From positions 65,156 to 129,155 of the forward strand of contig DATKIP010000093.1 in the NCBI GenBank assembly GCA_035544015.1: a DNA stretch of 64,000 nt, in the 5' to 3' direction. Numbering within the stretch: position 1 is the first letter of the stretch; every line of letters starts with the position of its first letter. Shown piece by piece: positions 3,471 to 54,867 of this stretch. The translations under genes were made by a program, and so were the position numbers. Below the pieces are notes generated by a model. It was not told the DNA's origin. It saw only the letters and a program-made list of their open reading frames with translations, and did no database searches. The stretch is from Candidatus Saccharimonadia bacterium (GTDB lineage: Bacteria > Patescibacteriota > Saccharimonadia > UBA4664).

Positions 3471-3503
3471 GAAGCGGTCTTTTCCATACGAACGAGCGCG
3501 TAG

Positions 3504-9952: not shown

Positions 9953-9976
9953 GCGTAACGCACGTATACTAGGCCC

Positions 9977-10270
9977 ATGTCAAAGATTGGTGTTACCGAG
10001 GTAGAGCGCGTCGCTGCATTGGCGCGCATTGGTTTGACGGGCGAAGAGGCCGCCGCCATGGCGGTTGAGATCGGCCGCATCGTGGGCTTTGTGGAGCAAC
10101 TACTGGCCGTAGACGTCGAGGGCGTGGCACCCACCGATCAAGTCACCGGCCTCGTCGATGTGTGGCGCGAAGACATCGTAAAACCCAGCCTGCCGCGCGA
10201 CCAATTGCTGGCCAACGCGCCCGCCCAAAAAGACGGCTACATTGTCGTAAAGCGAGTGCTCAATGGCTAA
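9977..10270 (+). CDS. gatC: Asp/Glu-tRNA(Asn/Gln) amidotransferase subunit C
   Basis: 97 aa. VERVAALARIGLTGEE...VEQLLAVDVEGVAPT is typical GatC. Overlaps the gatA start by 8 nt. Confidence 0.85.
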   Translation: MSKIGVTEVERVAALARIGLTGEEAAAMAVEIGRIVGFVEQLLAVDVEGVAPTDQVTGLVDVWREDIVKPSLPRDQLLANAPAQKDGYIVVKRVLNG

Positions 10271-16060: not shown

Positions 16061-16354
16061 ATGATTCTCGCCAGCGACCGACCCGACTCCAACTCCAAGC
16101 GCAGCGGCGTCAACTACGAGCGCCTCGGCAAAGCCGTCGAAGACGCGCTCATCCTCGACTACATCTACGTGCTGCACAGTACCCGACGCCAGATTTGGAG
16201 CTCGTTTGTGCGCGGCATTTTTGCCGGCCTCGGCGGCGTTTTGGGCGCCACCGTGGGCGTGGCGGTACTCGTGGGACTGCTTCAGCTCTTCGGCGGCGCG
16301 CCCGTCATTGGGCACTTTTTCCGCGACGTCGGCCAAACCATCGAAAACCGCTAA
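16061..16354 (+). CDS. small membrane protein
   Basis: TAAATG overlap with the previous gene. Hydrophobic segment IFAGLGGVLGATVGVAVLVGLLQLFGG. Confidence 0.45.
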   Translation: MILASDRPDSNSKRSGVNYERLGKAVEDALILDYIYVLHSTRRQIWSSFVRGIFAGLGGVLGATVGVAVLVGLLQLFGGAPVIGHFFRDVGQTIENR

Positions 16355-16442
16355 ACGCCCGGTCTAGAACGACGAAAGCCCCCGGCAAGAGCCGGGAGCT
16401 CCCGCCAAGGGCGGTTGTTCTGTCATGCGACAGAACGGGAAG

Positions 16443-16832
16443 TTACGCGGGGCAGGTGTTCTCCTGCTCGTCCGATGCGATCGGCACCGGCTTCTTGGCT
16501 TCCCACAGCGCGACCAGCTTCTTGCCGCAGGCCGCGGCATCGGATTCGGTGTCGAAGTGGCCGGCCAGATCGTAGGTCCGAAACTCCTTGCCCGTCACGT
16601 CGGCCGTCACGAACCACTGCCCGGAGAGCGGCGACTGCTGGACCTTGATGCTCTTCACCTGCGCGGCCGGGATCGAACCATCCGAGTAGACGCGTTCGTT
16701 GGAGCTGCGGGTGCTGGTGGGGTTCGGGGTGACGTCACCACCCGACTGGTTGCCGGACAGACCGCCATTCGCAGCGACGGCGACGCCACCCACCACCAGC
16801 ACCCCGGCAGCAATAATTCCCCTGATGCGCAT
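16443..16832 (-). CDS. small secreted hypothetical protein (paralog A)
   Basis: Start at Met with GGAG RBS. Signal/TM segment MRIRGIIAAGVLVVGGVAVAANG. C-terminal ...SDAAACGKKLVALWEAK motif shared with the neighbouring gene. Confidence 0.45.
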   Translation of the reverse strand: MRIRGIIAAGVLVVGGVAVAANGGLSGNQSGGDVTPNPTSTRSSNERVYSDGSIPAAQVKSIKVQQSPLSGQWFVTADVTGKEFRTYDLAGHFDTESDAAACGKKLVALWEAKKPVPIASDEQENTCPA

Positions 16833-16985
16833 AACACGCTCCAATGCAAGAGCTCCACTGCGGGTTACCCGCAGATCGTCCCGAAACGGAAACGACGTTC
16901 TGTTGATACTACAAAAAAGCCCAAAACACAACTAATTGCCGTCCAAAAAAGGCTTCAGGGCCCGACCACCGCACCATGCCGCGCT

Positions 16986-17393
16986 CTACGCGCAGGTTCC
17001 CGCCCGCCGCCGGCTAGCCAGCAGTATGCGCCGTCCCCGGCCGAAGGCTTGGCTGCTCAGCCGCCGGGCACAGGCCTTGGCCGCCTGCCGATCGGCCAGT
17101 CCCGTCACTACCTCCAGCGGTCCGTCAACGCCCTGGGCGTAGACCACCACCCGCCAGCTCGTGCGGCTCGGCGAGACCGGCTCCTCCTTGAAATCGATCA
17201 CCGTTGCTCCCGCCACAGAATCTGGCGGCGCAGTCTGCGGCTTGGGCCGCTGAGGATCCCGGGATGGGCTCGCGATCGTCGATCGCAGGCCCGCATTCGC
17301 GCTCGTGATGGAATCCCGGTTACCCATATTCCCGACCCACACCGCAGTCGCTACGGACACTATCGCCACGGCCGCCAGGCGCCTGAATGTCAC
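16986..17393 (-). CDS. small secreted hypothetical protein (paralog B)
   Basis: GTG start with AAGGAGG RBS 9 nt upstream. Signal/TM segment (M)TFRRLAAVAIVSVATAVWVG. C-terminal ...DRQAAKACARRL motif. Confidence 0.45.
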   Translation of the reverse strand: MTFRRLAAVAIVSVATAVWVGNMGNRDSITSANAGLRSTIASPSRDPQRPKPQTAPPDSVAGATVIDFKEEPVSPSRTSWRVVVYAQGVDGPLEVVTGLADRQAAKACARRLSSQAFGRGRRILLASRRRAGTCA

Positions 17394-17544
17394 CGTCGTA
17401 CTCCTCCTTCTCGGGTTGGAAATCCTCCCGCTACCGTCCATAGCGGGAATAGGCCTCATATTTTATAGAATAACTAACATGCGAAAGCAACCATCCGTGT
17501 CCGCCACCCGAAATCGAAAGCGGCGGCTTGCGACTGCAAAACGA

Positions 17545-17610
17545 GTCTAGAATTTAGACAAACCGTCCGAACCTGAAGGTAATGACGCACTGAATGTCTA
17601 AGGTTTAGAC
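17545..17610 (+). promoter_or_regulatory. paired palindromic operator module upstream of dnaE
   Basis: GTCTAGAATTTAGAC (17545-17559) and GTCTAAGGTTTAGAC (17596-17610) are 7+1+7 palindromes with centres 51 bp apart. GTCCGAAC (17565-17572) lies between them. The identical architecture recurs at 28797-28864. Confidence 0.5.
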
Positions 17611-17688
17611 ACATTACCGCGGACGACTGCCCCCGCGGCCGGTCACGCCCATGTGCTACCATTAAAATCAACGAAGAGGGGAGAGGGC

Positions 17689-20600
17689 GTGCCGGAAACA
17701 CAAACAGCGAAACCACAATTTGTCCACCTGCACAATCACAGCCACTACTCCCTGCTCGACGGCCTCCAAAAGGTCCCCGGCATGCTCGATCGCGTGCAGG
17801 AGCTCGGCATGACCTCGGTGGCGCTCACCGATCACGGCACCATGTCGGGCGCCATCGAATTTTACAAAGAAGCCAAAAAGCGCGACATCAAGCCAATAAT
17901 CGGCGTTGAAACCTACGTGGCGCCGCGCGGCCACCTCGACAAAGCCGGCCGCCAAGACGCCAATCCCTACCACCTCATCCTGCTGGCGTACAACAACGTC
18001 GGCTACCACAACCTCATGAAGCTCGTCACCATCGCGCAGCTCGAGGGGTACTATTACAAGCCGCGCATCGACCGCGACCTCATTACCCAGTACCACGAAG
18101 GCCTCATCGCGCTTTCCGCCTGTGCCGGTGGCGAGGTGGCTCAAAACATCCTCAACGGCAACCTGGCCGAGGCGCAGAAAGTAGTCGAGTGGTACGACGC
18201 CACCTTTGGCCGCGGCAATTATTACCTCGAACTCCAAGCGCACGAGCACCAATGGGAGACCCAAAAACAAATTAACGATGCCAAAATCGAGCTCTCGCGC
18301 AGCACTGGCGTGCCGCTCGTAGTCACAGCCGACGCCCACTACAGCGCCCACACCGATCGCGAGGCGCACGAAATCTTGCTGTGCGTCCAGACCGGCAAAA
18401 CCATCAGCGACGCCGGCCGCATGACCATGGACATGGACCTCTACGTCACCAGCCCCGACGAAGTCATCGAGCGTTTCCAGCGCGTCCCCGAGGCCTACGA
18501 AAACACGGTCAAAATCGCCGAACGCTGCGATGTGGAGCTTGAATTGGGCCGCATTCTCATCCCCACCTTCGAAGTCCCCGAGGGGTTCAAGGATGAGCGC
18601 GAATACCTGCACAGCCTGTGTTGGCGGGGGCTCGCCTGGCGCTACGGCGGCATTCCCAAAGAAGACATCGCCCACATTACCGAAGTCAAAGCCAAAACTC
18701 TCGTCACCCCCGAAATCGCCGAGCGCCTCGAGTTTGAGCTGTCGGTCATCGGCCGCATGGGCTACGACGGCTACTTTCTCATCGTGTCCGATTTCATCAA
18801 CTGGGGCAAAAACCAGGGCATCATCTTTGGCCCCGGGCGGGGGAGTGCGGCCGGTTCCATCGTGTCCTTCGCCATGAACATTACCGACCTCGATCCGCTC
18901 AAATACGACCTGCTGTTTGAGCGCTTCCTCAACCCCGACCGCATCTCCATGCCCGACATCGACATCGACATCCAAGACACCCGCCGCGGCGAAGTCATCG
19001 ACTACGTCACGGAAAAATACGGCCAAGAACGCGTGGCGCAGATCATCACCTTCGGCACCATGGCCGCCCGCAACGCCGTGCGCGACACCGGCCGCGCGCT
19101 CGGCTACTCCTACGCCGAGGTCGACGCCATTGCCAAGCTTGTACCGCAGCCGGTGCAGGGCCGCCACATCCCCCTGGCCGTAGCCGCCGGCCTCAAAACC
19201 GGCAAAGGCAGCGAGCAGCGCCCCGACCCCGAGCTTGTGAAGGAATACACCACCAACCAGCGCGCCCGCGAGCTCATCGACCTCGCCATCCGCCTCGAAG
19301 GCACCATCCGCTCAAACGGCGTGCACGCGGCCGGCGTGGTGATCGCGCCCGAGCCGATCGTGGGCTACACGCCGGTGCAGCGCGCCCAAAAAGGCGGTAC
19401 CGCCACGCAGTACTCCATGGGCCCCATCGAGGAGCTCGGCCTGCTCAAAATGGACTTCCTCGGCCTCTCCAACCTTACCGTCATCAACAATGCCCTGCGC
19501 ATCATCAAACGCGTCTACGGCGCCGCCATCGACATTGCCGACATCCCGCTCGACGATCCCAAAACCTTCGAGCTCCTCTCGCGCGGCGACACCACCGGTG
19601 TCTTCCAGGTAGAATCCGCGGGCATGAAGCGCTACCTGCGCGACCTCAAGCCCACGGTCTTCGACGACATCATTGCCATGGTAGCGCTCTACCGCCCCGG
19701 CCCCATGCAGTGGATCGACGAATTCATCGGCCGCAAGCACGGCAGCATCCCCATCACCTACGTGCACCCCTCCATGGAAAACGCGCTCAAAAACACCTAC
19801 GGCGTGCTCGTGTACCAAGAGCAGGTCATGCAGATCTCCAAAGAGGTCAGCGGCTTCACCGGCGGCGAGGCCGACACCTTGCGCAAAGCCATTGGCAAAA
19901 AGAACGCCGCCATGATGGCCAAAATGAAAACCAAATTCGTCGAAGGCGCGGTCAAAAACGTTGGCGCCGATCAAAAAATCATGGAAGACTTCTGGGCCAA
20001 TCTCGAAGATTTCGCCGCCTATTGTTTCAACAAATCCCACGCTGCCTGCTACGGCCTCATCGCCTACCAAACCGCCTACCTCAAGGCGCATTACCCCGCC
20101 GCCTTCATGGCCGCGCTCATGACCAGTGATTTTGGCAACATCGACCGCATCGCCATCGAGGTGGCCGAGTGCACGCGCATGGGCATCCAGGTGCTGCCCC
20201 CCGACGTCAACGAGTCGTTCCACGAATTTGCCGTGGTCAAAGAGTCGGGCAACATCCGATTTGGCCTTTCGGCGGTCAAAAACATCGGTTCCGGCCCCAT
20301 CGAGACCATCCTGGCGGCGCGCGACGAGGGCGGCCCCTTTGCCTCTGTCGAAGACTTTGCCAAGCGCGTCAACGCCCGCGAGTGCAACAAAAAAGTCTGG
20401 GAATCACTCACCAAATGCGGTGCCTTCGACGCGCTCATCGACGGTGACCGAGCTCAGCTTCTCTTTAACATCGAAACCATCACCGCCTTTGGCGCCAAAG
20501 CCCAAAAAAACGCTCTCTCGGGCCAAATCGACATCTTCGGCTCGCTCGGCGTCGAAGAAAACCTGCCGGCTCTTCGGCTCGAATCCGCGCCGCACCCTGC

Positions 20601-21321
20601 CTCGACCCGCGAGCAGCTCGCCTGGGAAAAGGAGCTCCTCGGCCTCTACATCTCGCATCATCCCCTCGACGAATACGCCGGCTACCTCGCCGACACCTGC
20701 GTGCCCATCAGTGACATCACGCCTTCGTCGGACGGCAAACTCCTGCGTATCGGCGGTATTATCACCACGGTGCGCAAAATTCTCACGAAAAAAGGCGACA
20801 CCATGGCCTTCGTGGGCATCGAAGACAAAACCGGCCTCACCGAGCTCATCGTCTTTCCCAAGGCCTTCGAAAAATCCCCCGAAGTCTTCGAGGCCGACAA
20901 CATCATCATGGCCACGGGCAAAATTTCCGCCCGCGACAAAGAAGGCCGCCTCACCGACGAGCCGAAGATGATGGTAGACGCCGCCAAAATCGTCAATTAC
21001 GACACCGCTTCCAGTCATGTCTCTACCCACGCGCCGCAGCCGGCGGCCCCAGTCGCCGCCCCGCCCGCCCGCCCAGCCGCCGCGGCATCCCCTGGCGGCG
21101 GCTACGTGGTGCTTCATCTCGCCGACCTGTCCGATCAGCAATTGCTTCACGACATCAAGCAAATCATCGGCGCTCATGCCGGCGGCGCCGAAATTTATAT
21201 CGTGGTCGGGGCCGACGCTCCCAAGAAAATCCGGCTACCGTTTAAGGTCGCCGTTTCCGAAGCACTCTTAGAGCAATTAGGCGCCCTCGTTGGCACGGAC
21301 CAAGTAACCCACGCCGCGTGA
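17689..21321 (+). CDS. dnaE: DNA polymerase III alpha subunit (DnaE1) with a C-terminal ~115-aa extension
   Basis: PHP domain start (FVHLHNHSHYSLLDG), polymerase core, OB fold. GTG start preferred because of the GAGGGGAG RBS (the track's ATG at 17653 lacks one). C-terminal Pro/Ala linker plus an extra domain. Confidence 0.9.
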   Translation: MPETQTAKPQFVHLHNHSHYSLLDGLQKVPGMLDRVQELGMTSVALTDHGTMSGAIEFYKEAKKRDIKPIIGVETYVAPRGHLDKAGRQDANPYHLILLAYNNVGYHNLMKLVTIAQLEGYYYKPRIDRDLITQYHEGLIALSACAGGEVAQNILNGNLAEAQKVVEWYDATFGRGNYYLELQAHEHQWETQKQINDAKIELSRSTGVPLVVTADAHYSAHTDREAHEILLCVQTGKTISDAGRMTMDMDLYVTSPDEVIERFQRVPEAYENTVKIAERCDVELELGRILIPTFEVPEGFKDEREYLHSLCWRGLAWRYGGIPKEDIAHITEVKAKTLVTPEIAERLEFELSVIGRMGYDGYFLIVSDFINWGKNQGIIFGPGRGSAAGSIVSFAMNITDLDPLKYDLLFERFLNPDRISMPDIDIDIQDTRRGEVIDYVTEKYGQERVAQIITFGTMAARNAVRDTGRALGYSYAEVDAIAKLVPQPVQGRHIPLAVAAGLKTGKGSEQRPDPELVKEYTTNQRARELIDLAIRLEGTIRSNGVHAAGVVIAPEPIVGYTPVQRAQKGGTATQYSMGPIEELGLLKMDFLGLSNLTVINNALRIIKRVYGAAIDIADIPLDDPKTFELLSRGDTTGVFQVESAGMKRYLRDLKPTVFDDIIAMVALYRPGPMQWIDEFIGRKHGSIPITYVHPSMENALKNTYGVLVYQEQVMQISKEVSGFTGGEADTLRKAIGKKNAAMMAKMKTKFVEGAVKNVGADQKIMEDFWANLEDFAAYCFNKSHAACYGLIAYQTAYLKAHYPAAFMAALMTSDFGNIDRIAIEVAECTRMGIQVLPPDVNESFHEFAVVKESGNIRFGLSAVKNIGSGPIETILAARDEGGPFASVEDFAKRVNARECNKKVWESLTKCGAFDALIDGDRAQLLFNIETITAFGAKAQKNALSGQIDIFGSLGVEENLPALRLESAPHPASTREQLAWEKELLGLYISHHPLDEYAGYLADTCVPISDITPSSDGKLLRIGGIITTVRKILTKKGDTMAFVGIEDKTGLTELIVFPKAFEKSPEVFEADNIIMATGKISARDKEGRLTDEPKMMVDAAKIVNYDTASSHVSTHAPQPAAPVAAPPARPAAAASPGGGYVVLHLADLSDQQLLHDIKQIIGAHAGGAEIYIVVGADAPKKIRLPFKVAVSEALLEQLGALVGTDQVTHAA

Positions 21322-21404
21322 GCTTGCCAAAAACGCCCAGCCCATTAATACTGATTGAGACCAAATTCTCCATGACCACCTAGCCACCCGAAAGGCGGTA
21401 CCGT

Positions 21405-22148
21405 ATGGGAAGTCTACAGATTTGGTTGATCGTTATAGGAAGCCTCGCTGCAGCTCTGGTGCTGTGGTACGTCGTGTGGCCGCTCTGTGCCTTGGTGCAA
21501 GCCTGGCTGAGGGTGAAGGCCGCCACGATCACCGCATCGCGCGATGGACGCGTTGAGGCGGCCCGAGCCAAGGGCCAGCAGCTGGCCGCGGAGGCCAAAC
21601 TGCAAACAGCTCGCCTCCAGACGGCCGCCAAGGCCGCCACCGCCACGGCCGCATTCAAGGCCCAAACCATTGCGGAGCAGAGGGTGATTGAGGCCGACGC
21701 CGCGACCCGCGTTCAGGCCGCGAAAGACACGCCTCCCGCACCTGCCAAACCGCCACCACGCCTGGCCCGTTCGGACCTGTTCTGGAATATCAGGTTCTGG
21801 GCGAACTTCGCGGCCGCGATCGTGATCGTGGTCGGTGCCATCGGGTACGGCATCTTCAAGTACGACCAGGCCTCTACCCGGCCGCACCAAGCCACCATCC
21901 TGGTGTGCAAGGTGTCGGACAACCCGCTCGACACCGACCCGCCCAAGCTCGAGACCGCCAGCGGTTCATACTACATCAACAAGGGCACGTTCGGCGCCAC
22001 CTACTACCCCGACCCGAGCAAGGGAAAGAAGTTCTTCGGGCCCAACAGGCAATACGCCATCACCTTCCACGGCATCTGGCCTGGAGATCGGTATGTCATT
22101 GGTGCCACCGAGTTGCCCAACACGGAGCAGCAGTGCGCCGGCTCGTAG
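21405..22148 (+). CDS. hypothetical membrane protein (2 TM)
   Basis: 247 aa. N-terminal TM, Ala/Lys-rich helical region, second TM, then a C-terminal globular part. Confidence 0.5.
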   Translation: MGSLQIWLIVIGSLAAALVLWYVVWPLCALVQAWLRVKAATITASRDGRVEAARAKGQQLAAEAKLQTARLQTAAKAATATAAFKAQTIAEQRVIEADAATRVQAAKDTPPAPAKPPPRLARSDLFWNIRFWANFAAAIVIVVGAIGYGIFKYDQASTRPHQATILVCKVSDNPLDTDPPKLETASGSYYINKGTFGATYYPDPSKGKKFFGPNRQYAITFHGIWPGDRYVIGATELPNTEQQCAGS

Positions 22149-22153
22149 ACCTG

Positions 22154-22186
22154 CTGCGGCCCGGGGACCAGCTCCCCGGGCCGCAG
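22154..22186. terminator. perfect 14-bp GC-rich hairpin (terminator or attenuator) between the upstream gene and rplS
   Basis: CTGCGGCCCGGGGA ccagc TCCCCGGGCCGCAG. No U-tract. Confidence 0.35.
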
Positions 22187-22234
22187 GCCCAGCCCCTTGA
22201 TCGCTCCGCTCAGATATGCTAAAGTACCCGGGTT

Positions 22235-22858
22235 ATGGAAGCCATTCGTCAACTCGAACTCAATTACCGCAAGCCCGCCCTGCCCCAGGTGCAGACGGGT
22301 GATACCGTGCGTGTGCATCAGCTCATCAAGGAAGGCGCCAAGCAGCGTATCCAGGTGTTCGAAGGCATTATCATTCGCACGCACCGCATGAACGAGCTGA
22401 CCGCCTGCGTTACTGTTCGGCGCATTGCTTCCGGTATTGGCGTCGAGAAGACCTTCTTGCTGCACTCACCCAACGTTTCCAAAATTGAAATTTTGCGCCG
22501 AGCCAAAGTCCGCCGCAACTTCCTCTCCTTCCTGCGCGAGCGCCGAGGCAAGTCGGCCCGTCTCAGGGAAATTAGCTTCGACAAGATCGCCGCCAACGAC
22601 GTCTCCACGCCCGAGACGCCCGCCGGCGACACCGATGAGACCGAGGTCATCGATGCCGAGCAAGCTGAAGACGCCCTCACCGATGCTGTGCCGCTGGCTG
22701 ATGTTGAAAAATCCGAAGCCAAAGCCGCCGCCAGCGAAGACGAACCCAACACCGCTGCCGATACCGGCACTCCCGACGAACAGCAAGCCCCCGCCGACGA
22801 GGCCGAAGCCGGTGTTGCCCAAGCCGAGCCTGGCGAAGGCAAAGCCGTCCAATCGTAG
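22235..22858 (+). CDS. rplS: 50S ribosomal protein L19 with a ~90-aa acidic C-terminal extension
   Basis: N-terminal ~115 aa match L19 (QVQTGDTVRVH...GAKQRIQVFEGIII...VRRIASGIGVEKTF). The Asp/Glu/Ala-rich tail follows. Confidence 0.85.
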   Translation: MEAIRQLELNYRKPALPQVQTGDTVRVHQLIKEGAKQRIQVFEGIIIRTHRMNELTACVTVRRIASGIGVEKTFLLHSPNVSKIEILRRAKVRRNFLSFLRERRGKSARLREISFDKIAANDVSTPETPAGDTDETEVIDAEQAEDALTDAVPLADVEKSEAKAAASEDEPNTAADTGTPDEQQAPADEAEAGVAQAEPGEGKAVQS

Positions 22859-22884
22859 CCAAAATCCTTTAGTGTTCATCTAAA

Positions 22885-22913
22885 ACAGCGCCGTTATACC
22901 GGTGCTGTTTTTT
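22885..22913 (+). terminator. intrinsic terminator after rplS
   Basis: 9-bp stem ACAGCGCCG/CGGTGCTGT (one G-U pair), 5-nt loop, then TTTTT. Confidence 0.5.
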
Positions 22914-22939
22914 GGTATAGAAGTCGGCCGTTTTGCGGT

Positions 22940-23620
22940 ATGCTGGTTGGCATGACGGTCATATCTGGAATTCCCGCTACCACCCGCACCCCCCGGCATG
23001 CCGCCGCCCCCGGCTGGCGCGCGGTACTCCCGCTGGTGCGCGCAGGCCGCACCATCATCGGCATCGACGAGGTCGGCCGCGGCGCCTGGGCCGGCCCGGT
23101 AGTGGCCGCGGCCGTAATCTTGCCGCCCCGCCTGCGCCTTCCCGGCCTCGGCGACTCCAAAGCCCTCGCAGCCCCGGCCCGCCGCCGCCTCAGTCGCGAC
23201 ATCCGTCGCCGCGCCCTCGCCGTGGGCATCGGCTGGGTGGCCGCCGCTGAGGTTGACGCCCACGGCCTCAGCTGGGCAGTGCGCGAGAGCGGCTTGCGCG
23301 CTCTGGCCGGCATGAGCCTTGAGGCTGCCGTTATCATCCTCGACGGCAGACACAATTACCTGCGGGGCACCCACGAGTCGCAGGTGTTTGTGAAAGCCGA
23401 CGCCACCATCTCACCGGTTGCCGCCGCCTCGATCATCGCCAAGGTGGCGCGCGATGCCTACATGCAGCGGCTGCACCGGGCCGACCCCCGCTATGGTTTC
23501 GACCAGCATGTTGGCTACGGCACCGCCCTGCACGCTGCCGGCCTGGCCGCCCACGGTCCCGGCCCGCAACACCGATATAGCTTTCGTCCCATCCGGGAGG
23601 CCGCACGTGTCATCGGTTGA
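22940..23620 (+). CDS. rnhB: ribonuclease HII
   Basis: IGIDEVGRGAWAGPVVAAAV (DEVGRG catalytic motif) and GDSKALA motif. Confidence 0.85.
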   Translation: MLVGMTVISGIPATTRTPRHAAAPGWRAVLPLVRAGRTIIGIDEVGRGAWAGPVVAAAVILPPRLRLPGLGDSKALAAPARRRLSRDIRRRALAVGIGWVAAAEVDAHGLSWAVRESGLRALAGMSLEAAVIILDGRHNYLRGTHESQVFVKADATISPVAAASIIAKVARDAYMQRLHRADPRYGFDQHVGYGTALHAAGLAAHGPGPQHRYSFRPIREAARVIG

Positions 23621-23963
23621 GACCGGCCGCGCGGGCGAACAGCTCGCCGCTCAGCACCTCGCCGCCAGTGGCTTTGCCATTCTCGCGCGCAATTGGCGCA
23701 ACCGGTGGTGCGAGCTCGATATCGTCGCCCGCCGCCACGGCATAATTCACTTCATCGAGGTTAAATACCGCTCCGACATCCGCTACGGCTACGCGGCCGA
23801 ATACATTTCGCGGGACAAATCCGCGCGCCTCATGCGCGCCGCCCTGGCCTGGAACCAGGCACATGGTTACGACGGCCCCTACCAAATCGACGTCGTCACC
23901 GTTGAGGGCAGCCTCGAACAGCCCCAGATCGCGCACCTCGAAAACGCCGTCGGTGGATGGTAG
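23607..23963 (+). CDS. yraN: YraN/UPF0102 family endonuclease
   Basis: GTG with GGGAGG RBS. Overlaps the rnhB end by 14 nt. RAGEQLAAQHLAASGFAILARNWR...ELDIVA...HFIEVKYR is typical YraN. Conserved rnhB-yraN pairing. Confidence 0.7.
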   Translation: MSSVETGRAGEQLAAQHLAASGFAILARNWRNRWCELDIVARRHGIIHFIEVKYRSDIRYGYAAEYISRDKSARLMRAALAWNQAHGYDGPYQIDVVTVEGSLEQPQIAHLENAVGGW

Positions 23964-23976
23964 CCGGCTGGCCGCA

Positions 23977-26553
23977 TTAGCGGGCCTGCGCCTGCTCCCA
24001 ATCGGCCAAAAACGCCGCCACGGCCGCCGCGTCGCGATCTGCCCAATCGGCCCGCAACTCCACGCTTTCCACCGCCTGATCCGTCGGCCGGCCCAGCGCC
24101 GGGTGCGGGTGGCTGTCGAAAAAGTCCCGGATCTCGGCTGCTTTCGCGTGTGTCGCAAAACCCGCGCCCACAAACAAAGGAAAATGCTCCAGCATATGGC
24201 CGCCCGCTCCGTAGCGCTCCAGCCATAGATTCCAGTGATCTTGGACCCATTGCCAGGTAGCGTCGCGCCCGTCGCGGTTGCGCATGCCCCAGGCTAGCGC
24301 AATGTAGAGGTCCTGCGGCCGTACCGCCTCGGTCAGTGCGTACGCCAAATAGCGCGCAATCAGGGCCGGCTGACGAAAACGGCCCATTGCCCCCAGTAGC
24401 CCCAGTTTGATCTGCGGCACCGGTTCGCGCTCATAGCGGCTTTGCATAGCCTCAAACTCGTGTTCACCACCATGTCTCGCCGCCGCAAACAGCAGCGCCG
24501 CCACCACGTCCGGATCTGTTTCGGCTCCGTCCATCCAGGCTGCCCAGCGTGTCTTGGCCTCCTTCACCACTGTCTCATCATCAAACCGAATCGCCTGCTG
24601 CAATACCAGTGGCCGCATCAACGTATCAAACGATGACTCATCGTCGGCGGCCTCCCAGCCCAGGCGCTTCACGTTTGGTCCCACGAGCCAATGCCCAAAA
24701 TGGTCGAGTCGCTCGCGCAAGGCCGCATCCTCGACGGCATGCGACAAATCACCCAACGCACCACTCACTCCGGTCCACACCACATAATTCGGCTCATCGC
24801 GCAGCGCCGCCACCAGTTTCAGCAACGCCGTGCTGGTCGTGACACCGGCTTCAGTAGCCGCCGTCACGTCGCCGATGATGCCAAACCGGTCCACCACCGC
24901 CAGCTCGCGGGTGTGCAACGGCGCGGTCAAAGCCTCGATCATCCCCTCGGTGTAGTGCGTCCGGAAAAATCCCGTTTGCCCCGGATTGGGCTTAAACCAA
25001 TCCGAACCCAATATCTCGGCCGACAACATGTCGCTGTGCTTTCGCAGCAGCTCCGTGGGGGTCTCCCGCCCGCCGGGCAGCAGCACATTAAACGGTATCG
25101 GCCACAGCGACGCATCCTGGCCTTTGGCCGCCTGTCGCGGCGAGCTGTAAAACCGCCGCTGCTGTACCTCGCCGTCGTCAAACGTCACCACCGGATACCC
25201 TGGCTTGCTCGTCCAGGCCGACATCAGCGCGTCCACCGGCTTGCCCGATGCCGCTTCCAGCGCCCGCCACAGATCGTGCGTCACCGCGTTGGCGTAGCTG
25301 TGCTTCGTGAGGTACGCATGCAGCCCCTTGCGAAAGTCCTGATCTCCCAAATAGTGGTGCAGCATGCGGATCACACTGCCTCCCTTGCTATATGACACCG
25401 CATCAAAAATTTCGTCGAGCCCGCGCGGGTCCTCTACCTCCACCTCAATGGGGTGAGTGCTCACGAGGCTATCGAGCTCCATGGCGCGACCTGTTTCATC
25501 GGCCGTAAAGTGCGCCCAGATCTCCCACTCCGGGAACCGCGCGTTGCGCGCCAAATCGGCACACCAGGTCGCAAAGCCTTCGTTGAGCCACAAATCGTTC
25601 CACCACCGCATCGTGACGAGGTTGCCAAACCACTGGTGCGCTAGCTCGTGCGTCACGATCTCGGCCACGCGCTGCTTGGCCATGAGCGAGGTGCGCTCAG
25701 GATCGAGCAGCAGCGCCGTTTCGCGGTACGTCACCAGTCCCCAGTTTTCCATCGCGCCGGCCGCAAAATCCGGCAGCGCTACCATATCGAGGTTGGGCAG
25801 GGGATAGGGAATGCCAAAATAATCTCCGAAAAATGATAGCGTCCACGTCGCCATATCCAGCGCAAACGCCAGCTGGTCTTTGTGTCCCGGCGTTGCCAGT
25901 GCGCGCACCCGCACGCCCTCGGCCGTCTCGCCCTCCAGGTACTCAAACTCGCCTACCACATACGCCAGCAAGTAGGTGCTCATCTTGGGCGTGGGCGCAA
26001 AGGTTACGCGCTTGCGCCCCTCGCCGGCCGGCGTCTCCTCGGTCGCCACGGTATTCGACAGCGCCATCATGCCCTCCGGCACGGTCAAATTCAGCTCAAA
26101 CACCGCCTTGGCGCTGGGTTCGTCGATCGCCACCAGCGCCTCGCGCGCATGCACCGCTTCAAATTGCGTGGTCGCAATGAGCTGCTCCTGGCCGTCGCGC
26201 TGGTAAGTGCTGCGGTAAAAACCATGCAGCGAGTCGCCGATGACACCGCGCACCCGCATCGACAAGTGATGCATGCCGGCGCCCACGATCTCCGCAAACG
26301 CAAACGTCACGGTCTCGGTCTTCTCGTCGAGCTTCACCGACTCCGGGCTGAGCTTGCCGTCGAGCTTCACCTCGCTCACTTCCAGCCCAACCGCATGGAA
26401 TACCAGCTCGTTTGATGGCTCCACCACGGCAAAATCAATCGATTCATGAATCGCAAACCGTGAACCCGCCATGTCAACGTCAATGTCCAGCGCGTACCGC
26501 TCGGGCACAATAGTATCCAAAAGACGAGCCACCTTTGCCATGCACAACCTCAT
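23977..26553 (-). CDS. pepN: aminopeptidase N (M1 family)
   Basis: GAMENWG exopeptidase motif and HELAHQWFGNLVTMRWWNDLWLNEGFA zinc-binding HEXXH-(18)-E. Confidence 0.9.
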   Translation of the reverse strand: MRLCMAKVARLLDTIVPERYALDIDVDMAGSRFAIHESIDFAVVEPSNELVFHAVGLEVSEVKLDGKLSPESVKLDEKTETVTFAFAEIVGAGMHHLSMRVRGVIGDSLHGFYRSTYQRDGQEQLIATTQFEAVHAREALVAIDEPSAKAVFELNLTVPEGMMALSNTVATEETPAGEGRKRVTFAPTPKMSTYLLAYVVGEFEYLEGETAEGVRVRALATPGHKDQLAFALDMATWTLSFFGDYFGIPYPLPNLDMVALPDFAAGAMENWGLVTYRETALLLDPERTSLMAKQRVAEIVTHELAHQWFGNLVTMRWWNDLWLNEGFATWCADLARNARFPEWEIWAHFTADETGRAMELDSLVSTHPIEVEVEDPRGLDEIFDAVSYSKGGSVIRMLHHYLGDQDFRKGLHAYLTKHSYANAVTHDLWRALEAASGKPVDALMSAWTSKPGYPVVTFDDGEVQQRRFYSSPRQAAKGQDASLWPIPFNVLLPGGRETPTELLRKHSDMLSAEILGSDWFKPNPGQTGFFRTHYTEGMIEALTAPLHTRELAVVDRFGIIGDVTAATEAGVTTSTALLKLVAALRDEPNYVVWTGVSGALGDLSHAVEDAALRERLDHFGHWLVGPNVKRLGWEAADDESSFDTLMRPLVLQQAIRFDDETVVKEAKTRWAAWMDGAETDPDVVAALLFAAARHGGEHEFEAMQSRYEREPVPQIKLGLLGAMGRFRQPALIARYLAYALTEAVRPQDLYIALAWGMRNRDGRDATWQWVQDHWNLWLERYGAGGHMLEHFPLFVGAGFATHAKAAEIRDFFDSHPHPALGRPTDQAVESVELRADWADRDAAAVAAFLADWEQAQAR

Positions 26554-26583
26554 GAGTTACAGATCACCATTATATCGACAAAC

Positions 26584-26648
26584 TTGCCGCCAGCCCACCC
26601 CCACGCTATAATGTCTCTTGTAGCCGGCCAGCAGGCCGGTCATTTTTA
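26584..26648 (+). promoter_or_regulatory. nusA promoter (-35 TTGCCG, 17 nt, -10 TATAAT) with leader hairpin and T-tract (attenuator candidate)
   Basis: TTGCCG 26584-26589 and TATAAT 26607-26612. CCGGCC agca GGCCGG hairpin at about 26622-26640, then ATTTTTAT. RBS TAAGGAG at 26681. Confidence 0.4.
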
Positions 26649-26696
26649 TCACACAGCGCCACAATTGAATAACAACAGAATAAGGAGTTCACCACT

Positions 26697-27938
26697 ATGC
26701 AAACCAATTTTTTAGCCGCTATCAACCTCATCGCTGAGGAAAAAAATCTTCCCCGCGACATTATCATCGAGACCGTTCAGGCCGCGCTGGCCGCGGCGTA
26801 CAAGAAAGATTACAGCGACAAAGATCAAGAAGCCCGCGCCGAGCTCGACGAAGAGACCGGTGAGGTGCACATCTATGAATCCAAGGCTGTGGTACCAGAC
26901 GGCGAGGTCGACAACGAATTTCTCCAAATCGGTCTCTCGGACGCCAAAAAGATCGACAAAAAGGCCGAAGTGCGCGAAGCCGACGTCGAAGCCGGCATCG
27001 AGCCCTACATGGTCGAAATGGAAGCCCACCCCGAAGACTTCGGCCGCGTGGCCGCCCAAACCGCCAAGCAGGTGATCATTCAGCGCCTGCGCGAAGCCGA
27101 GCGTGAAATCGTCTTCACCGAGTACAAAGACAAAGAGGGCCTGGTGCTCAACGGCAACGTGCAGCGCGTCGAAGGCAGCGTGGCCTACGTCGATCTGGGC
27201 AAAGCCACCGGCGTATTGTTTGCCTCAGAGCAAATTCCCGGCGAGCGCTACTACACCGGCCAGCGCCTCAAGGTGTTTGTGGTGCGCGTAGAGCAAACCG
27301 CCCGCGGACCGCAGATCGTGCTCAGCCGCGCCCACGCCCACATGGTGAAGCATTTGTTCGAGCTCGAAGTGCCCGAGATCGAGGCGGGCAGTGTCGAAAT
27401 CGTCGGCATCGCCCGCGAGGCCGGCATCCGCTCCAAGGTCGCGGTGCAATCGCACGCCTCTGGCGTCGACGCCGTCGGCACCTTTGTGGGTGGCCGCGGC
27501 TCGCGCGTGCAGGCCGTCATGAGCGACCTCGGCGAAGAAAAAATCGACATCATCCCCTACGCCGAAGACCCCGAAACCTACATCGCCAATGCGCTGTCAC
27601 CCACCAAGGTCGTCAGCGTCAGCCTCAATGACGTCGAAAAGAAGGCCGTGGTGCGCGTGCCCGAAGACCAGCTCTCGCTGGCCATCGGCAAGCAGGGCCA
27701 AAACGTCCGCCTGGCCGCCAAGCTCACGGGCTGGAACATCGACATCATTTCGGCCGACGAATCACGCATCGAAGCCGCTGCCGCAGCCGCCGCGGCCGAA
27801 CCCGCGCCCAAGGGTGGTGACCTCGAGAGCTCGCTCATCGACGCCATCAACCAACAGGCCGAAATCGACCCCGCCCGCAGCGAAGAGGTCTCAGGCGGCC
27901 AAACCGACGTGCTCTCGGGCCGCGAGTCCAACGACTAG
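26697..27938 (+). CDS. nusA: transcription termination/antitermination factor NusA
   Basis: 413 aa. N-terminal NusA domain, S1, two KH domains (…LAIGKQGQNVRLAAKLTGWNIDI), acidic C-terminus. Confidence 0.9.
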   Translation: MQTNFLAAINLIAEEKNLPRDIIIETVQAALAAAYKKDYSDKDQEARAELDEETGEVHIYESKAVVPDGEVDNEFLQIGLSDAKKIDKKAEVREADVEAGIEPYMVEMEAHPEDFGRVAAQTAKQVIIQRLREAEREIVFTEYKDKEGLVLNGNVQRVEGSVAYVDLGKATGVLFASEQIPGERYYTGQRLKVFVVRVEQTARGPQIVLSRAHAHMVKHLFELEVPEIEAGSVEIVGIAREAGIRSKVAVQSHASGVDAVGTFVGGRGSRVQAVMSDLGEEKIDIIPYAEDPETYIANALSPTKVVSVSLNDVEKKAVVRVPEDQLSLAIGKQGQNVRLAAKLTGWNIDIISADESRIEAAAAAAAAEPAPKGGDLESSLIDAINQQAEIDPARSEEVSGGQTDVLSGRESND

Positions 27939-28046
27939 CCACCGCGACCGCCGGCTCGCCGGTTGCACCCAGGCACATAATCCGCTACGGTAACAATCGC
28001 CGAAGTTGGCATCCCTCCGTTCATCTCCAGCCCCCGAAGGAGCGCC

Positions 28047-28697
28047 GTGAGGCGGTTATTTGGCATCCTCGCGCTCATAGGCATAATCGTCTATGTTGTC
28101 CCGCACGCTAGCAACGGTGGTCCAGGCGCCACCCAAACCGGCCGGCGGGGGATCGTCACGTCCCAAGCCCGCATCGATTACTCCAAGGTGACAAGTCGAC
28201 TCACGGAGCTAAAGCTCGGTCCGCTAGTGACGAGCCAAAGCTCTGGCGCGCAGCGTCAGGTGGCCACCACCAAACTGCTTGCTAGTGGCCTCGTCACCGC
28301 GGTCAAGTACGATCAGCGCATTCGATGCTACCCGCTCGATGACCTCAGCCAGCGTGCCGCCAAGATGTATTGGGGGCTCGTGCAGTTCTTGCAGGTGATC
28401 GTAACCGCCGGTTTCGTCGTCGGGGTCAGCTGCGTCAATACGGGCCACGATCGTGACGGTGCACTCCATCCGTTATGGCGGGCTATGGACATAAACTACG
28501 TCAATGGTCGGCGGGTTAATACTCGTCTCGATCAAGTCTGGCGGTTTGCGCGCTGGGTGATGGGTCTCAATACGGCCGATCTACCCACCGAGGTCGGTAG
28601 CGACAGCGATTTCATTGACCACAGTCGTATGAAAAAGGCCGGCCGAGGCCCGTTTATTGTCGATCCAGCCCATTTTCACTTCGGGTATCGGCTATGA
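28047..28697 (+). CDS. membrane-anchored LAS/M15-like zinc peptidoglycan hydrolase (motif-based)
   Basis: N-terminal TM. HPLWRAMD fits the H-x6-D metal motif. C-terminal DPAHFHFGY resembles the M15 EPWH(F/Y) motif. Confidence 0.45.
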   Translation: MRRLFGILALIGIIVYVVPHASNGGPGATQTGRRGIVTSQARIDYSKVTSRLTELKLGPLVTSQSSGAQRQVATTKLLASGLVTAVKYDQRIRCYPLDDLSQRAAKMYWGLVQFLQVIVTAGFVVGVSCVNTGHDRDGALHPLWRAMDINYVNGRRVNTRLDQVWRFARWVMGLNTADLPTEVGSDSDFIDHSRMKKAGRGPFIVDPAHFHFGYRL

Positions 28698-28796
28698 CCT
28701 GCCCGTCAACTTCCGGCGGCCCGCCCGTGCCCGTGATCGGGTGCGGGCGGGCAATCCGGCCTGGGCGCCGCACCGGCATTACGTGCGCTATGTACA

Positions 28797-28864
28797 ATGT
28801 CTAAAGTTTAGACATTTGCCGTAGGTCCGAACTCAAATAACCGTAAAAAGTCTAAACTTTAGAC
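28797..28864 (+). promoter_or_regulatory. paired palindromic operator module upstream of the wHTH regulator and clpC
   Basis: ATGTCTAAAGTTTAGACAT (28797-28815, perfect 9+1+9 palindrome) and GTCTAAACTTTAGAC (28850-28864), centres 51 bp apart. GTCCGAAC lies between them (28825-28832). The second palindrome ends 13 nt before the regulator ATG. Confidence 0.5.
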
Positions 28865-28876
28865 CACATCACCTTC

Positions 28877-29206
28877 ATGAACACCCTCCAGCCACCAAAA
28901 ACCACCCGCCAAGTCCGCACCAAGTACACGCCGCTCAGTTACGAGCGCCTCGCCATCCTTCTCGCCGTCGCTGCGGGTCCCATCGATTGCGCCCGCATCG
29001 CCGAGCAAGTACTGGCCGATACTGTCGCCAATATCGTCCTCAAGAAAAGTACAGCCTATTATCTTATAAGTGAATTGACCACTACCGGTCACCTGCAAAA
29101 ACACGGTTCCTACACCCTCACCGCCAAAGGTCGCCAAACCTTGCAACGCGAGCTCGCGCGCCTCGAACAACAGCGCCGTCTCCTGCTCCAGCGCCTACCG
29201 CAATGA
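28877..29206 (+). CDS. small winged-helix transcriptional regulator (PadR/ArsR-like)
   Basis: 109 aa. LSYERLAILLAVAAGPIDCARIAEQV...STAYYLISELTTTGHL...YTLTAKGRQTL has a wHTH pattern. Occupies the CtsR-equivalent position upstream of clpC. Confidence 0.5.
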   Translation: MNTLQPPKTTRQVRTKYTPLSYERLAILLAVAAGPIDCARIAEQVLADTVANIVLKKSTAYYLISELTTTGHLQKHGSYTLTAKGRQTLQRELARLEQQRRLLLQRLPQ

Positions 29207-29209
29207 CGT

Positions 29210-29248
29210 TTAGCACTCGCTTGCATAGAGTGCCAACAATGCTATACT
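29210..29248 (+). promoter_or_regulatory. CIRCE-like inverted repeat (HrcA operator) with embedded promoter upstream of clpC
   Basis: TTAGCACTC-gcttgcata-GAGTGCCAA (29210-29236) matches 17/18 of the CIRCE consensus TTAGCACTC-N9-GAGTGCTAA. -35 TTGCAT lies inside the spacer, then 16 nt, then -10 TATACT (29243-29248). Confidence 0.5.
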
Positions 29249-29317
29249 ATCTGCATATCTCGCGTACTCTTGACTACCGGATGCCAGCGTGGGAGGGTAA
29301 CGGAAAGGACATCAATC

Positions 29318-31849
29318 ATGGCCGATTTTAGCTCACAGTTCGATCGGTTCACCGAGAACGCCAAACGCAGTCTCGAAAACGCCGAGGCCATCGCCACCCA
29401 AATGGGTTCCAGCTACGTCGGCACCGAGCACATTTTGCTCGGCGTGCTGCAGCAAGAGACCTCCATCGGGGCCAAAATTCTCAAAAATGTCGGCGTCACG
29501 TTCGAAAAAGCCCAGCTGGTACTGAGCTTCTCGCAGCAGTTAGCCGGCGGCGGCTACAAAGGCGCCTCCGAAACCGCTAAGCGTACGCTCACCTACAGCA
29601 TGCGCGTGGCGAAGGAATTCGGGCAGCCTTACTGCGGTACCGAGCACATTTTGTTCGCCATCCTGAGCGAAAAAAGTGCGCGCGCTATCAGCTTGCTCAA
29701 AAACGACCTCCAGATCGACCCCGCTATCATCCGCGGTGAGCTCGAAAACTACCTCGGCAACCAGCAATACTTCTATGCCGACGAAGAGCGCGGCGGCGCC
29801 CGTACCGCCAAGGGTGGGGGAGGCGGCAACGCCGGCAAATCCAAAACCCCCGCGCTCGATCACTTTGGCATCGATCTCACCGCCAAAGCCGGCGACAACA
29901 AGCTCGATCCCATGGTGGGCCGCGAAGCCCAGATTAGCCGCGTCATTTCTATCCTCGGCCGCCGCAGCAAAAACAACCCCGTGCTCATCGGCGAGCCCGG
30001 CGTTGGCAAAACCGCCATCGCCGAGGGCCTGGCTCAGCGCATCATTGCCGAGGAAGTCCCCGAAATGCTTCTGCGCAAGCGCCTCGTCATGCTCGACCTG
30101 GCGTCGGTCATCGCCGGCACCAAGTACCGCGGCGAATTCGAAGAGCGCCTCAAAAAAATCCTCGACGAGGCCAAAGCCACTCCCGAGGTCATCCTCTTCA
30201 TCGACGAGCTCCACACCGTGGTGGGCGCCGGCGCGGCCGAAGGCGCCATCGACGCCGCCAACATCCTCAAGCCCGCGCTCAGCCGCGGCGAAATTCAGGT
30301 GATCGGCGCCACTACTCTCGACGAATACCGCAAGCACATCGAAAAAGACGCCGCCCTCGAGCGCCGCTTCCAGCCGGTGCAGGTCCCCGAAACCACGCCC
30401 GAAGAGACCGTCGACGTGCTGCGCGGTTTGCGGCCCCGTTACGAAGAGCACCACCGCGTCGAAATCAGCGACGAGGCCATCGAAGCCGCCGCCAAGCTCG
30501 CTAAGCGCTACGTGGCCGACCGTTTTCTGCCCGACAAGGCCATCGACCTCATCGACGAGGCCGCCAGCCTCGCCCGCATCAAGCGCGGCGGCTCCAGCAA
30601 GGCTTTGCGCAACCTCCAAAAACAAGTAAGCGAAATCCGTGACGACATCGAAAACGCCGTCTTCGACCAAGACTTCGAGCTGGCCGCTCGCCTCAAGACC
30701 CGCGAATCGGTCATCCAAAACCGCCTCAGTCAGCTCAAACTCAAAGAAGGCGCCGCCGATGCCGCCGTGCGTATCACCGCCGAAGACATCGCCCAGGTCG
30801 TCTCGCTCATGACCGGCATCCCCGTCACGCGCCTCATCAAGACCGAAGTCGACAGCCTCCTCAAGCTCGAAGACTCGCTCAAGCGCCGAGTCATCGGCCA
30901 AACAGAAGCCATCGAAGCCATCTCCCGCAGCATCCGCCGCTCGCGCACCGGCGTGTCCGACGCCCGCCGTCCCATCGGCAGCTTCATTTTCCTCGGCCCC
31001 ACCGGCGTCGGCAAAACCGAGCTCGCGCGTATGCTGTCCGAGGAATTGTTCCACGACCGCGATGCCATGATCAAGATCGACATGTCGGAATTCATGGAGC
31101 GGCACAACGTTTCGCGCCTCGTCGGCGCCCCCGCCGGCTATGTCGGCTACGACGAAGGTGGTCAGCTCACGGAGCAGGTCCGGCGCAAGCCCTACAGCCT
31201 CATCCTTTTCGATGAGCTCGAGAAGGCCCACCCCGATGTGTTCAACATGCTGCTGCAAATCCTCGAAGATGGCTATGTCACCGACGCCAAAGGCCGCCGC
31301 GTCGACTTCCGCAACACGGTCATCATCATGACCTCCAACGTCGGCGCCTCCGACATGAACCGCGAAGTCGAGCTCGGTTTCCGCACCGAAACTCCGAATG
31401 AGGAAAAAGCCCTCGAGGCCACTCACCTCAAGGTCAAAACTAAGGTGCTCGAAGACCTGCGCAAGCAATTCCGCCCCGAATTCCTCAACCGCATTGACGG
31501 CACACTGGTCTTCAAGACGCTCAGCCAAAACGACATCAAAAAGATTCTTGTGCTTCAGCTGACCGACTTGAGCAAACGCCTCGATGAACAAGATCTCAAG
31601 CTCAAAGTGACGTCCTCGGCCAAAGGACTCCTCGTGGAGCGTGGCTACGACACCAAACAGGGCGCCCGCCCGATGCGCCGTGCCATCCAGGATCTCCTGG
31701 AAGACCCGCTCGCCACGGGGCTGCTCGACGGCCGCTTCGAAGCCGGTGATACCATCACCGCCACCCGCCGCGGCGACCAAATCCACCTCACTTCCGAGCG
31801 GCCTGCCCCCTCGCCAACCACCACGGTCGACGAAGCGGGCCGCGCCTAA
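29318..31849 (+). CDS. clpC: ATP-dependent Clp protease ATP-binding subunit ClpC
   Basis: Clp_N repeats, two AAA+ modules ([15 protein letters not shown]; [11 protein letters not shown]), UVR-like coiled coil. Start at the ATG with GGAAAGG RBS (29318) rather than the track's 29270. Confidence 0.9.
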
Positions 31850-33660: not shown

Positions 33661-33781
33661 AGGGAATCCACCTCTCTCGGCCGGAGAAACTGCACTTGGG
33701 AAGGGCCATCCGTTGTCGCAATGAACTGCATTTCGACTCGGGATCATTCCATTATGCCGTCAAATGCGGCCACCGCAAACT

Positions 33782-54796: not shown

Positions 54797-54867
54797 CGCA
54801 CCCCGGGGCTAGCACTCGCATACCACGAGTGCTAAAATAACCCCAGAATGTGAACAAGGAAGCCCCC

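Follow-up and report, generated by a model that had tools for sequence, protein, structure and literature searches.

We analysed a 64-kb window of the Candidatus Saccharimonadia bacterium contig DATKIP010000093.1 (GenBank assembly GCA_035544015.1, positions 65,156 to 129,155), in which two pairs of short palindromes mark two separate loci. One pair lies upstream of dnaE, which encodes the replicative DNA polymerase III alpha subunit, and the other lies upstream of a gene for a 109-amino-acid winged-helix regulator, which is followed by a clpC-type AAA+ ATPase gene (Table 1). With up to two mismatches allowed, GTCTAAANTTTAGAC has exactly four matches in the window, against a chance mean of 0.04, and none of 100 dinucleotide-preserving shuffles reached four. 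The centre-to-centre distance is 51 bp in both pairs. At the regulator the two palindromes are exact reverse complements of each other, and palindrome 1 extends to a 19-bp perfect palindrome, ATGTCTAAAGTTTAGACAT, at 28797-28815. The dnaE-side pair is separated by 78 nt from the dnaE GTG at 17689, and 12 nt lie between the end of the regulator-side pair (28864) and the regulator ATG at 28877.

The original prediction, made from the sequence of the window alone, had described four GTCTAAA-N-TTTAGAC palindromes at these places, the 51-bp spacing of both pairs, the perfect 19-mer and a distance of about 80 bp between the dnaE module and its GTG, all of which agree with the coordinates. It had further counted an identical octamer between the palindromes, GTCCGAAC, as part of a shared module, and this element was rejected. 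The octamer stands 20 nt from the start of palindrome 1 in the dnaE module versus 26 nt in the regulator module, so that the registers differ by 6 nt, and its four copies in the window (2.2 expected) were equalled in 18 of 100 shuffles, which is a background frequency. Outside the palindromes the two modules give no convincing alignment to each other. The sequence ACAT(C/T)ACC directly follows palindrome 2 on the plus strand in both.

The regulator and its operators in related lineages

Homologues of the regulator are rare, with only a handful among 5.8 billion proteins, and a search among cluster representatives gave 14 at E < 1e-10. We compared five orthologous lineages (L003/4/5, L001/2, L006/7, L008 and L038), namely the loci of P0002-P0005 plus L038, which was reached via dnaE. 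The regulator-side module is genuine and conserved: in the comparison of orthologous intergenic regions, which the original prediction had suggested, all five further lineages keep two 15-bp palindromes with identical geometry, the centres being exactly 51 bp apart and palindrome 2 ending exactly 12 nt before the ATG (in L008 and L038 this distance was counted from a corrected, upstream in-frame ATG). The 36-bp spacer between the palindromes is invariant in length, and its first half is not conserved.

The sequence of the sites varies in a concerted manner. Within each lineage all four half-sites shift jointly, giving the variants GTCTAAA, TTCTAAA, GTCC(T/C)AA and GTC(C/T)CAA, and in an ungapped 66-nt alignment 98% of the cells are paired, with two-sided changes in six to seven pairs. 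In the lineages with TCTAAA operators (the window, L003, L006 and L038), position 62 in the recognition helix of the regulator is Tyr, and in the two GTCCCAA-type lineages (L001 and L008) it is Thr or Arg. Such a joint change of the half-sites and residue 62 is the pattern expected of a dimeric DNA-binding protein co-evolving with four equivalent half-sites. In addition, the two palindromes of five of the six regulator modules are reverse complements of each other, central base included, with central base pairs of G/C, C/G, C/G, G/C and T/A, and in L001 the mirror relation extends even to the imperfection inside each palindrome. Besides pairing as RNA, discussed below, a two-fold-symmetric dimer of dimers or concerted evolution via template switching between the inverted copies would explain this relation.

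The sites also follow the presence of the regulator gene. In the regulator-bearing relatives they occur solely upstream of the regulator within the 11-24 kb readable per locus, and no such sites were found in the 11-24 kb readable in L039 and L047, which do not have the regulator. In L039 a C-terminal remnant of the regulator is left at 19450-19500, still coding ...ILKQSLHT*, and in L047 the regulator is gone from the corresponding region (17141-17460). Since the regulator has been lost in both of these genomes while the CIRCE-clpC arrangement described below stays, it can be dispensed with and has a patchy distribution. P0194, a distant member of the family, which lies beside dnaN-dnaA on another contig of the candidate phyla radiation (CPR), has no comparable palindrome pair; only the subfamily adjacent to clpC has this architecture.

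Two broader scans for palindrome pairs were made. Among 185,579 species genomes, a collection outside which the source genome lies, pairs with gaps of 26-46 gave 13 matches, mostly in Paraburkholderia, plus one Verrucomicrobia metagenome-assembled genome (MAG) and one unclassified bacterial MAG, and none had the 36-bp gap. The sole match inspected, L014 2906-3070 (Paraburkholderia; similar in L009-L021), consists of unrelated GTGTCTAGAGTCTAGACAC palindrome repeats with a spacing unlike the 36-bp gap. A metagenome scan with gaps of 31-41 gave 16 matches, again none with the 36-bp gap, which is a weak negative since a JGI contig that bears the module was missed. One of these matches, the metagenome contig L023 (1576-1665), carries four tandem CTAGTCTAAWTTTTAGACTAG palindromes, which are unrelated and resemble a plasmid or phage iteron or a centromere-like array.

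A Candidatus Saccharimonadia bacterium MAG encodes a hypothetical protein that is 100% identical to the window regulator. The protein alone has no Pfam or NCBIfam match, with none to PF03551 at E <= 1. Its close orthologues match HVO_A0261_N, one of them matches PF03551 PadR at 2.8e-5, and more distant family members carry PF03551 PadR. A profile built from 25 family sequences matches LmrR and other PadR-like chains in the PDB at E = 5e-6 to 2e-4 (LmrR at 5e-6), and the match spans the winged helix and helix 4. The AlphaFold2 model (mean pLDDT 78.9) has helices at residues 22-32, 41-48 and 57-69, a beta wing at 73-75 and 78-81, and a long C-terminal helix at 83-106. The best Foldseek matches of the model in the PDB are structures of PadR subfamily 2 (PadR-s2), namely 1xma, 5dym (TM 0.66/0.74), 6abt, 4zzd (LmrR) and 5zi8 (Rv3488), with 3l7w also among the matches, and MarR proteins score similarly. 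The helix-4 Trp (W96 in LmrR, W94 in cdPadR1) is not conserved in the family, where the position of W96 falls within an 'R-l-e-q' consensus segment, and Trp is entirely missing from the window protein; this residue is a subfamily hallmark and does not define the fold. Taken together, the family profile and the relatives place the protein in PadR-s2 by sequence, and the modelled winged helix-turn-helix (HTH) with a single long C-terminal helix does so by fold, so that we regard the 109-amino-acid regulator, on profile and model evidence, as a divergent PadR-s2 (LmrR-like) winged-helix protein. Its family occurs only in a small group of Saccharimonadia from soil (TM7, Patescibacteria).

Neither window module gave a match in standard sigma-70 or terminator scans. 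In a relaxed -35/-10 scan, on which the promoter placement is based, TTG(C/T)(A/G)A-17-TA(C/G)(C/T)(C/T)T was the sole promoter-like arrangement co-located in all five orthologues. Its 17-nt spacer, as in TTGCAA-17-TACCCT, is made up of two bases and the entire palindrome 2, and its -10 hexamer ends 6 nt before the ATG, with no Shine-Dalgarno sequence. This position of the -10, together with the missing Shine-Dalgarno sequence, points to a leaderless regulator mRNA, the transcript most likely starting at the A of the ATG, which would set the centre of palindrome 2 at -20 and that of palindrome 1 at about -71. The predicted clpC promoter is of the same style (TTGCAT-16-TATACT), suggesting that sigma-70-like hexamers are in use in the clade. 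Unlike the regulator gene, dnaE and clpC of the same genomes have strong Shine-Dalgarno sequences.

clpC, dnaE and their surroundings

The regulator and clpC are not a unit under one operator, as the original prediction had assumed. A CIRCE element, the operator of HrcA, begins 3 nt past the regulator stop codon and overlaps a predicted promoter of clpC. A perfect CIRCE is found at the same place in L001, L002, L008, L038 and L039, and a near-perfect one in L047, so that CIRCE-clpC is kept even in the two relatives without a complete regulator gene. The clpC promoter is likewise conserved among relatives, these two included. A second CIRCE in the window lies at 54809-54835, between tig and clpP. 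Because of these two elements, clpC and clpP appear to be members of the HrcA/CIRCE regulon in this clade of Saccharimonadia. The original prediction was right that the four palindromes are not CIRCE, which they do not match, and it overlooked the genuine element about 350 bp downstream.

The dnaE-side module lies inside a 247-bp intergenic region from which dnaE and an orphan membrane-protein gene are divergently transcribed. The palindrome centres precede the predicted dnaE start site by about 66-72 and about 117-123 bp, and a G+C-rich inverted repeat, CCGCGG-N10-CCGCGG (17617-17638), stands between the module and the core promoter predicted for dnaE. We read the sequence preceding dnaE in five relatives with a DnaE identity of 79-82% (L038, L039, L040, L046 and L047), of which L038 has the regulator and L039 and L047 do not. 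In L038, L039, L046 and L047 a DUF5665 gene is directly followed by dnaE, and in L040 a divergent gene of its own stands between them. At this place the window is longer by about 1.2 kb, a stretch that carries two minus-strand orphan genes and the module. The orphan divergent proteins have no significant Pfam match, and no homology was found between them or with the product of the divergent gene of L040. An overlapping plus-strand open reading frame (ORF), 16425-17468, was rejected as a gene; its translation is junk-like and Arg/Pro-rich, and gene callers pick the minus-strand genes. L001 (1-4118; from the P0004 genome) has an interrupted dnaE, in which DnaE residues 743-1209 correspond to a separate 489-amino-acid ORF (554-2023), with a minus-strand gene before this ORF and an IS1595 transposase gene nearby (3324-4118).

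The window has a G+C content of 61%. Three metagenome contigs are identical to it over about 21 kb and were the source of independent gene calls, which agree on the starts of dnaE (GTG 17689) and clpC (ATG 29318); as these contigs are 100% identical to the window, no strain-level variation could be obtained from them. Downstream of clpC there are two minus-strand genes, one unknown and one for an ABC transporter, followed by radA and a PIN-domain gene. The two minus-strand genes (31957-35635) split clpC from radA in the window, and L001, L003 and L039 have radA directly after clpC.

Table 1. Positions of genes and predicted elements in the 64-kb window, and of the regulator-side module in orthologous loci
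Feature	Position	Strand	Remarks
DUF5665-family gene	16061-16354		assigned by synteny
Orphan membrane-anchored gene	16443-16931	minus	gene calls on identical contigs
Orphan membrane-anchored gene, 151 amino acids	16986-17441	minus	divergent from dnaE; inside the ~1.2-kb insertion missing in relatives
dnaE-side palindrome 1	17545-17559	none	GTCTAGAATTTAGAC, one mismatch
dnaE-side palindrome 2	17596-17610	none	GTCTAAGGTTTAGAC, one mismatch
Predicted dnaE core promoter, -10	17654-17668	plus	TGcTACCAT (extended -10) overlapping or abutting TAAAAT; recognisable in relatives; placed by consensus and conservation
dnaE	17689-21321	plus	replicative DNA polymerase III alpha subunit; GTG start
L19 gene	22235-22858
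RNase HII gene	22940-23620		assigned by synteny
pepN	23977-26553	minus
nusA	26697-27938
Gene for a 216-amino-acid protein	28047-28697		function unassigned
Regulator-side module, window	28799-28864		both palindromes GTCTAAA-type
Regulator-side palindrome 1, predicted upstream operator	28799-28813	none	GTCTAAAGTTTAGAC, perfect; positionally equivalent orthologous sites in L003, L001, L006, L038 and L008
Regulator-side palindrome 2, predicted promoter-proximal operator	28850-28864	none	GTCTAAACTTTAGAC, perfect
Regulator gene	28877-29206	plus	109-amino-acid PadR-s2-like winged-helix protein; without Shine-Dalgarno sequence, probably leaderless
CIRCE (HrcA operator)	29210-29236	plus	TTAGCACTC-N9-GAGTGCCAA, one mismatch; overlaps the clpC promoter
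Predicted clpC promoter	29221-29226 and 29243-29248		-35 TTGCAT and -10 TATACT, spacer 16
clpC-type AAA+ ATPase gene	29318-31849	plus	own Shine-Dalgarno sequence GGGAGGG
Regulator-side module, L001	9923-9988		palindrome 1 GTCCTAAcTTGGGAC, palindrome 2 GTCCCAAgTTAGGAC; predicted promoter 9966-10001
Regulator-side module, L003	1003-1068		both palindromes GTCTAAA-type; predicted promoter 1046-1081
Regulator-side module, L006	1011-1076		both palindromes TTCTAAA-type; predicted promoter 1054-1089
Regulator-side module, L008	88-153		palindrome 1 GTCCCAAtTTGGGAC, palindrome 2 GTCTCAAaTTGGGAC; predicted promoter 131-166
Regulator-side module, L038			both palindromes TTCTAAA-type; predicted promoter 19756-19791

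Proposed mechanism and alternatives

We consider it likely that the regulator is a PadR-s2-like autorepressor with twin operators, that the second pair of sites is a species-specific addition, and that clpC is separately controlled by HrcA. In the mechanism that we propose, a dimer of the regulator would bind each 15-bp palindrome (7-N-7). Two dimers placed 51 bp apart, about five helical turns, would occupy nearly the same face of the DNA, and their binding would probably be cooperative, as a dimer of dimers. Occupation of the proximal palindrome, which fills the -35/-10 spacer, would block RNA polymerase and result in negative autoregulation. Autorepression is the most likely mode because palindrome 2 fills a promoter spacer that is placed for a leaderless mRNA in the five orthologues. 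In the window species, the second, slightly degenerate pair would probably put dnaE, the orphan gene, or both under the same regulator. The original prediction had seen in the sites a dimeric-repressor operator pair with autoregulation, a view that fits the five orthologous loci, the co-varying half-sites and the adjacent PadR-s2-like protein.

Several observations weigh against this account. In the window itself the hexamers around palindrome 2 are degenerate (CGTAAA and CACATC, with two of six matches each), so the regulator promoter is not placeable by consensus there and the argument is weaker for this genome. The dyad symmetry of the whole module is not predicted by a simple homodimer operator, and the extent of the regulon could not be defined from either of the two scans. 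As for dnaE, none of the five relatives has a palindrome of the three known variants upstream of the gene, and the pair was seen in the window species only. The module there lies about 45 bp upstream of the conserved dnaE -10 and not over the promoter, which is unlike the classical position of a repressor, and it is equally near the divergent orphan gene. Because the module is missing in the five relatives, and because it is positioned upstream of the core promoter and beside a lineage-specific insertion, dnaE is a plausible target in this species only. Thus, of the coupling to dnaE in the original prediction, the second pair of sites is truly there and the link itself is reduced to a species-specific hypothesis. 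Two near-perfect sites at exactly 51 bp in a diverged spacer argue that the dnaE-side copy is functional.

The target of the dnaE-side copy might be a different one. The module could control the divergent orphan gene or genes of the inserted cassette, having come with this cassette or evolved for it, and its proximity to dnaE would then be incidental; we keep this as a tentative possibility, which concerns the target only and is compatible with autorepression at the regulator. The arrangement in the relatives favours it, as they have DUF5665 and dnaE directly adjacent with a gap of 64-260 bp and no palindromes, and the two orphan genes lie together with the module in the extra DNA of the window; the distance of the module from the conserved dnaE -10 counts in the same direction. 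Furthermore, the targets of PadR-type regulators are often membrane proteins or transporters encoded next to them, such as lmrCD in the case of LmrR. Yet palindrome 1, which is 85-103 nt from the ATG of the orphan gene, misses the predicted promoter of that gene as well (TTCGCA-16-AAATAT, 17485-17458), and the common ACAT(C/T)ACC after palindrome 2 gives a hint that the dnaE-side module is oriented like the one at the regulator, towards dnaE. A more elaborate form of the mechanism would have a rigid two-fold-symmetric dimer of dimers on the fixed 51-bp module, repressing at about -20 and modulating near -70, the position at about -70 being common to the regulator's own distal site and the dnaE proximal site; we regard this form as improbable.

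The palindromes might also act as RNA or single-stranded DNA, in which a 15-bp stem with a 36-nt loop, 12 nt upstream of the start codon, would serve as a processing, insulating or translational element in read-through transcripts. RNAfold does predict a long-range stem in the regulator modules (-22 to -35 kcal/mol, z-scores -3.9 to -5.3), the central bases are complementary in six of seven modules when G-U pairs are allowed, with four two-sided changes, and in L001 the long-range pairing is perfect while palindrome 2 alone has a C-A mismatch. The arms of such a stem need not be palindromic, however, and each arm is so in every lineage; an invariant 36-nt loop with an unconserved 5' half suits helical phasing of DNA better; and, since the -35 and -10 hexamers flank palindrome 2, palindrome 1 would be untranscribed from that promoter. 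The dnaE module fails to fold into a long stem, and there is no Rfam match: a single tRNA alone passes the gathering score in the whole window, and nothing was found in 28650-29350 at E <= 1. We therefore judge a role as RNA or single-stranded DNA to be very unlikely.

We give similarly little credence to the idea that another protein binds the palindromes, or that the dnaE-side module has no function and was left over from a duplication of the regulator promoter region. The assignment of the sites to the adjacent regulator comes from sequence comparison, which leaves room for another binder, and CCGT(AGGT)CCGAAC, present in both window spacers with a displacement of 6 nt, might be a trace of common ancestry. 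A different binding protein does not fit the fact that the sites track the regulator gene, being absent from the readable sequence of the two relatives that lost it, or that the half-sites vary along with the recognition helix. A remnant does not fit the dnaE copy, in which the palindromes and the exact 51 bp survive while the spacer has diverged beyond alignment, indicating selection on the sites rather than neutral decay.

Regulators are very few in Saccharibacteria and other CPR bacteria, whose control of transcription is almost entirely uncharacterised, and a literature search on Saccharibacteria, PadR and clpC returned no relevant report. The autorepressor account adds a predicted regulator-operator pair with good comparative support, exact geometry and covariation of specificity, as well as a probable leaderless promoter architecture and the placement of clpC and clpP in the HrcA/CIRCE regulon. 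If true, regulation of the replicative dnaE would couple growth or replication to a signal, restricted to one species, and the rigid dimer of dimers, if it existed, would tie the level of the sole replicative polymerase to a signal in a reduced-genome CPR bacterium.

Comparison with known systems

LmrR, cdPadR1 and other PadR-s2 regulators recognise inverted repeats, both in the promoters of their own genes and in those of a few targets (PMC4534193, PMC5050560). The window regulator resembles LmrR of Lactococcus lactis and cdPadR1 of Clostridioides difficile in its size of about 110 amino acids, its winged HTH and its one long C-terminal dimerisation helix, whereas its wing loop is about 10 residues shorter than that of LmrR and the Trp of the LmrR drug pocket, in helix 4, is not conserved. 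Its predicted operator would function in the manner known from PadR-s2 autoregulators, and differs from those of LmrR and cdPadR1 in being a strictly spaced pair of 7-N-7 palindromes at 51 bp. The PadR operator consensus is ATGT-N8-ACAT.

The locus also recalls CtsR, the class III stress repressor of Firmicutes, in that a winged-helix protein is encoded directly upstream of clpC and that the order regulator-clpC-radA-PIN resembles the Bacillus ctsR region, where the order is ctsR-mcsA-mcsB-clpC-radA-disA-yacL. The half-site GTCTAAA is similar to the CtsR heptad A/GGTCAAA as well. An identity as CtsR was nevertheless rejected: PF05848 gave no match, and the single match of PF17727 (CtsR_C) among five members, at E = 0.088, is noise. 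Unlike CtsR, the protein has 109 amino acids and, in the AlphaFold model, no four-helix C-terminal domain, there is no mcsA or mcsB, and clpC and clpP are under CIRCE instead. CtsR binds within the -35/-10 region to a tandem direct heptad, A/GGTCAAA-NAN-A/GGTCAAA (PMC12634643), and the sites here are 7-N-7 inverted repeats, so that the original prediction rightly kept them apart from the CtsR heptad. The HrcA/CIRCE system, TTAGCACTC-N9-GAGTGCTAA, differs in both sequence and protein, and the four palindromes do not match it.

LexA offers an analogy only. It represses its own gene, at which more than one operator may be present, and polymerase genes are among its targets; in Streptomyces venezuelae there are two LexA boxes at lexA and boxes at dnaE2 (PMC9380542). 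The regulator described here has another fold without the S24 peptidase domain, its target would be the replicative dnaE, and no DNA-damage link is in evidence. An autoregulated PadR-like repressor with palindromic operators is thus a well-known arrangement, and this case is set apart by its 7-N-7 motif, by the strict spacing of the pair, by a promoter that is probably leaderless, by its CPR host and by the extra dnaE-side copy in one species.

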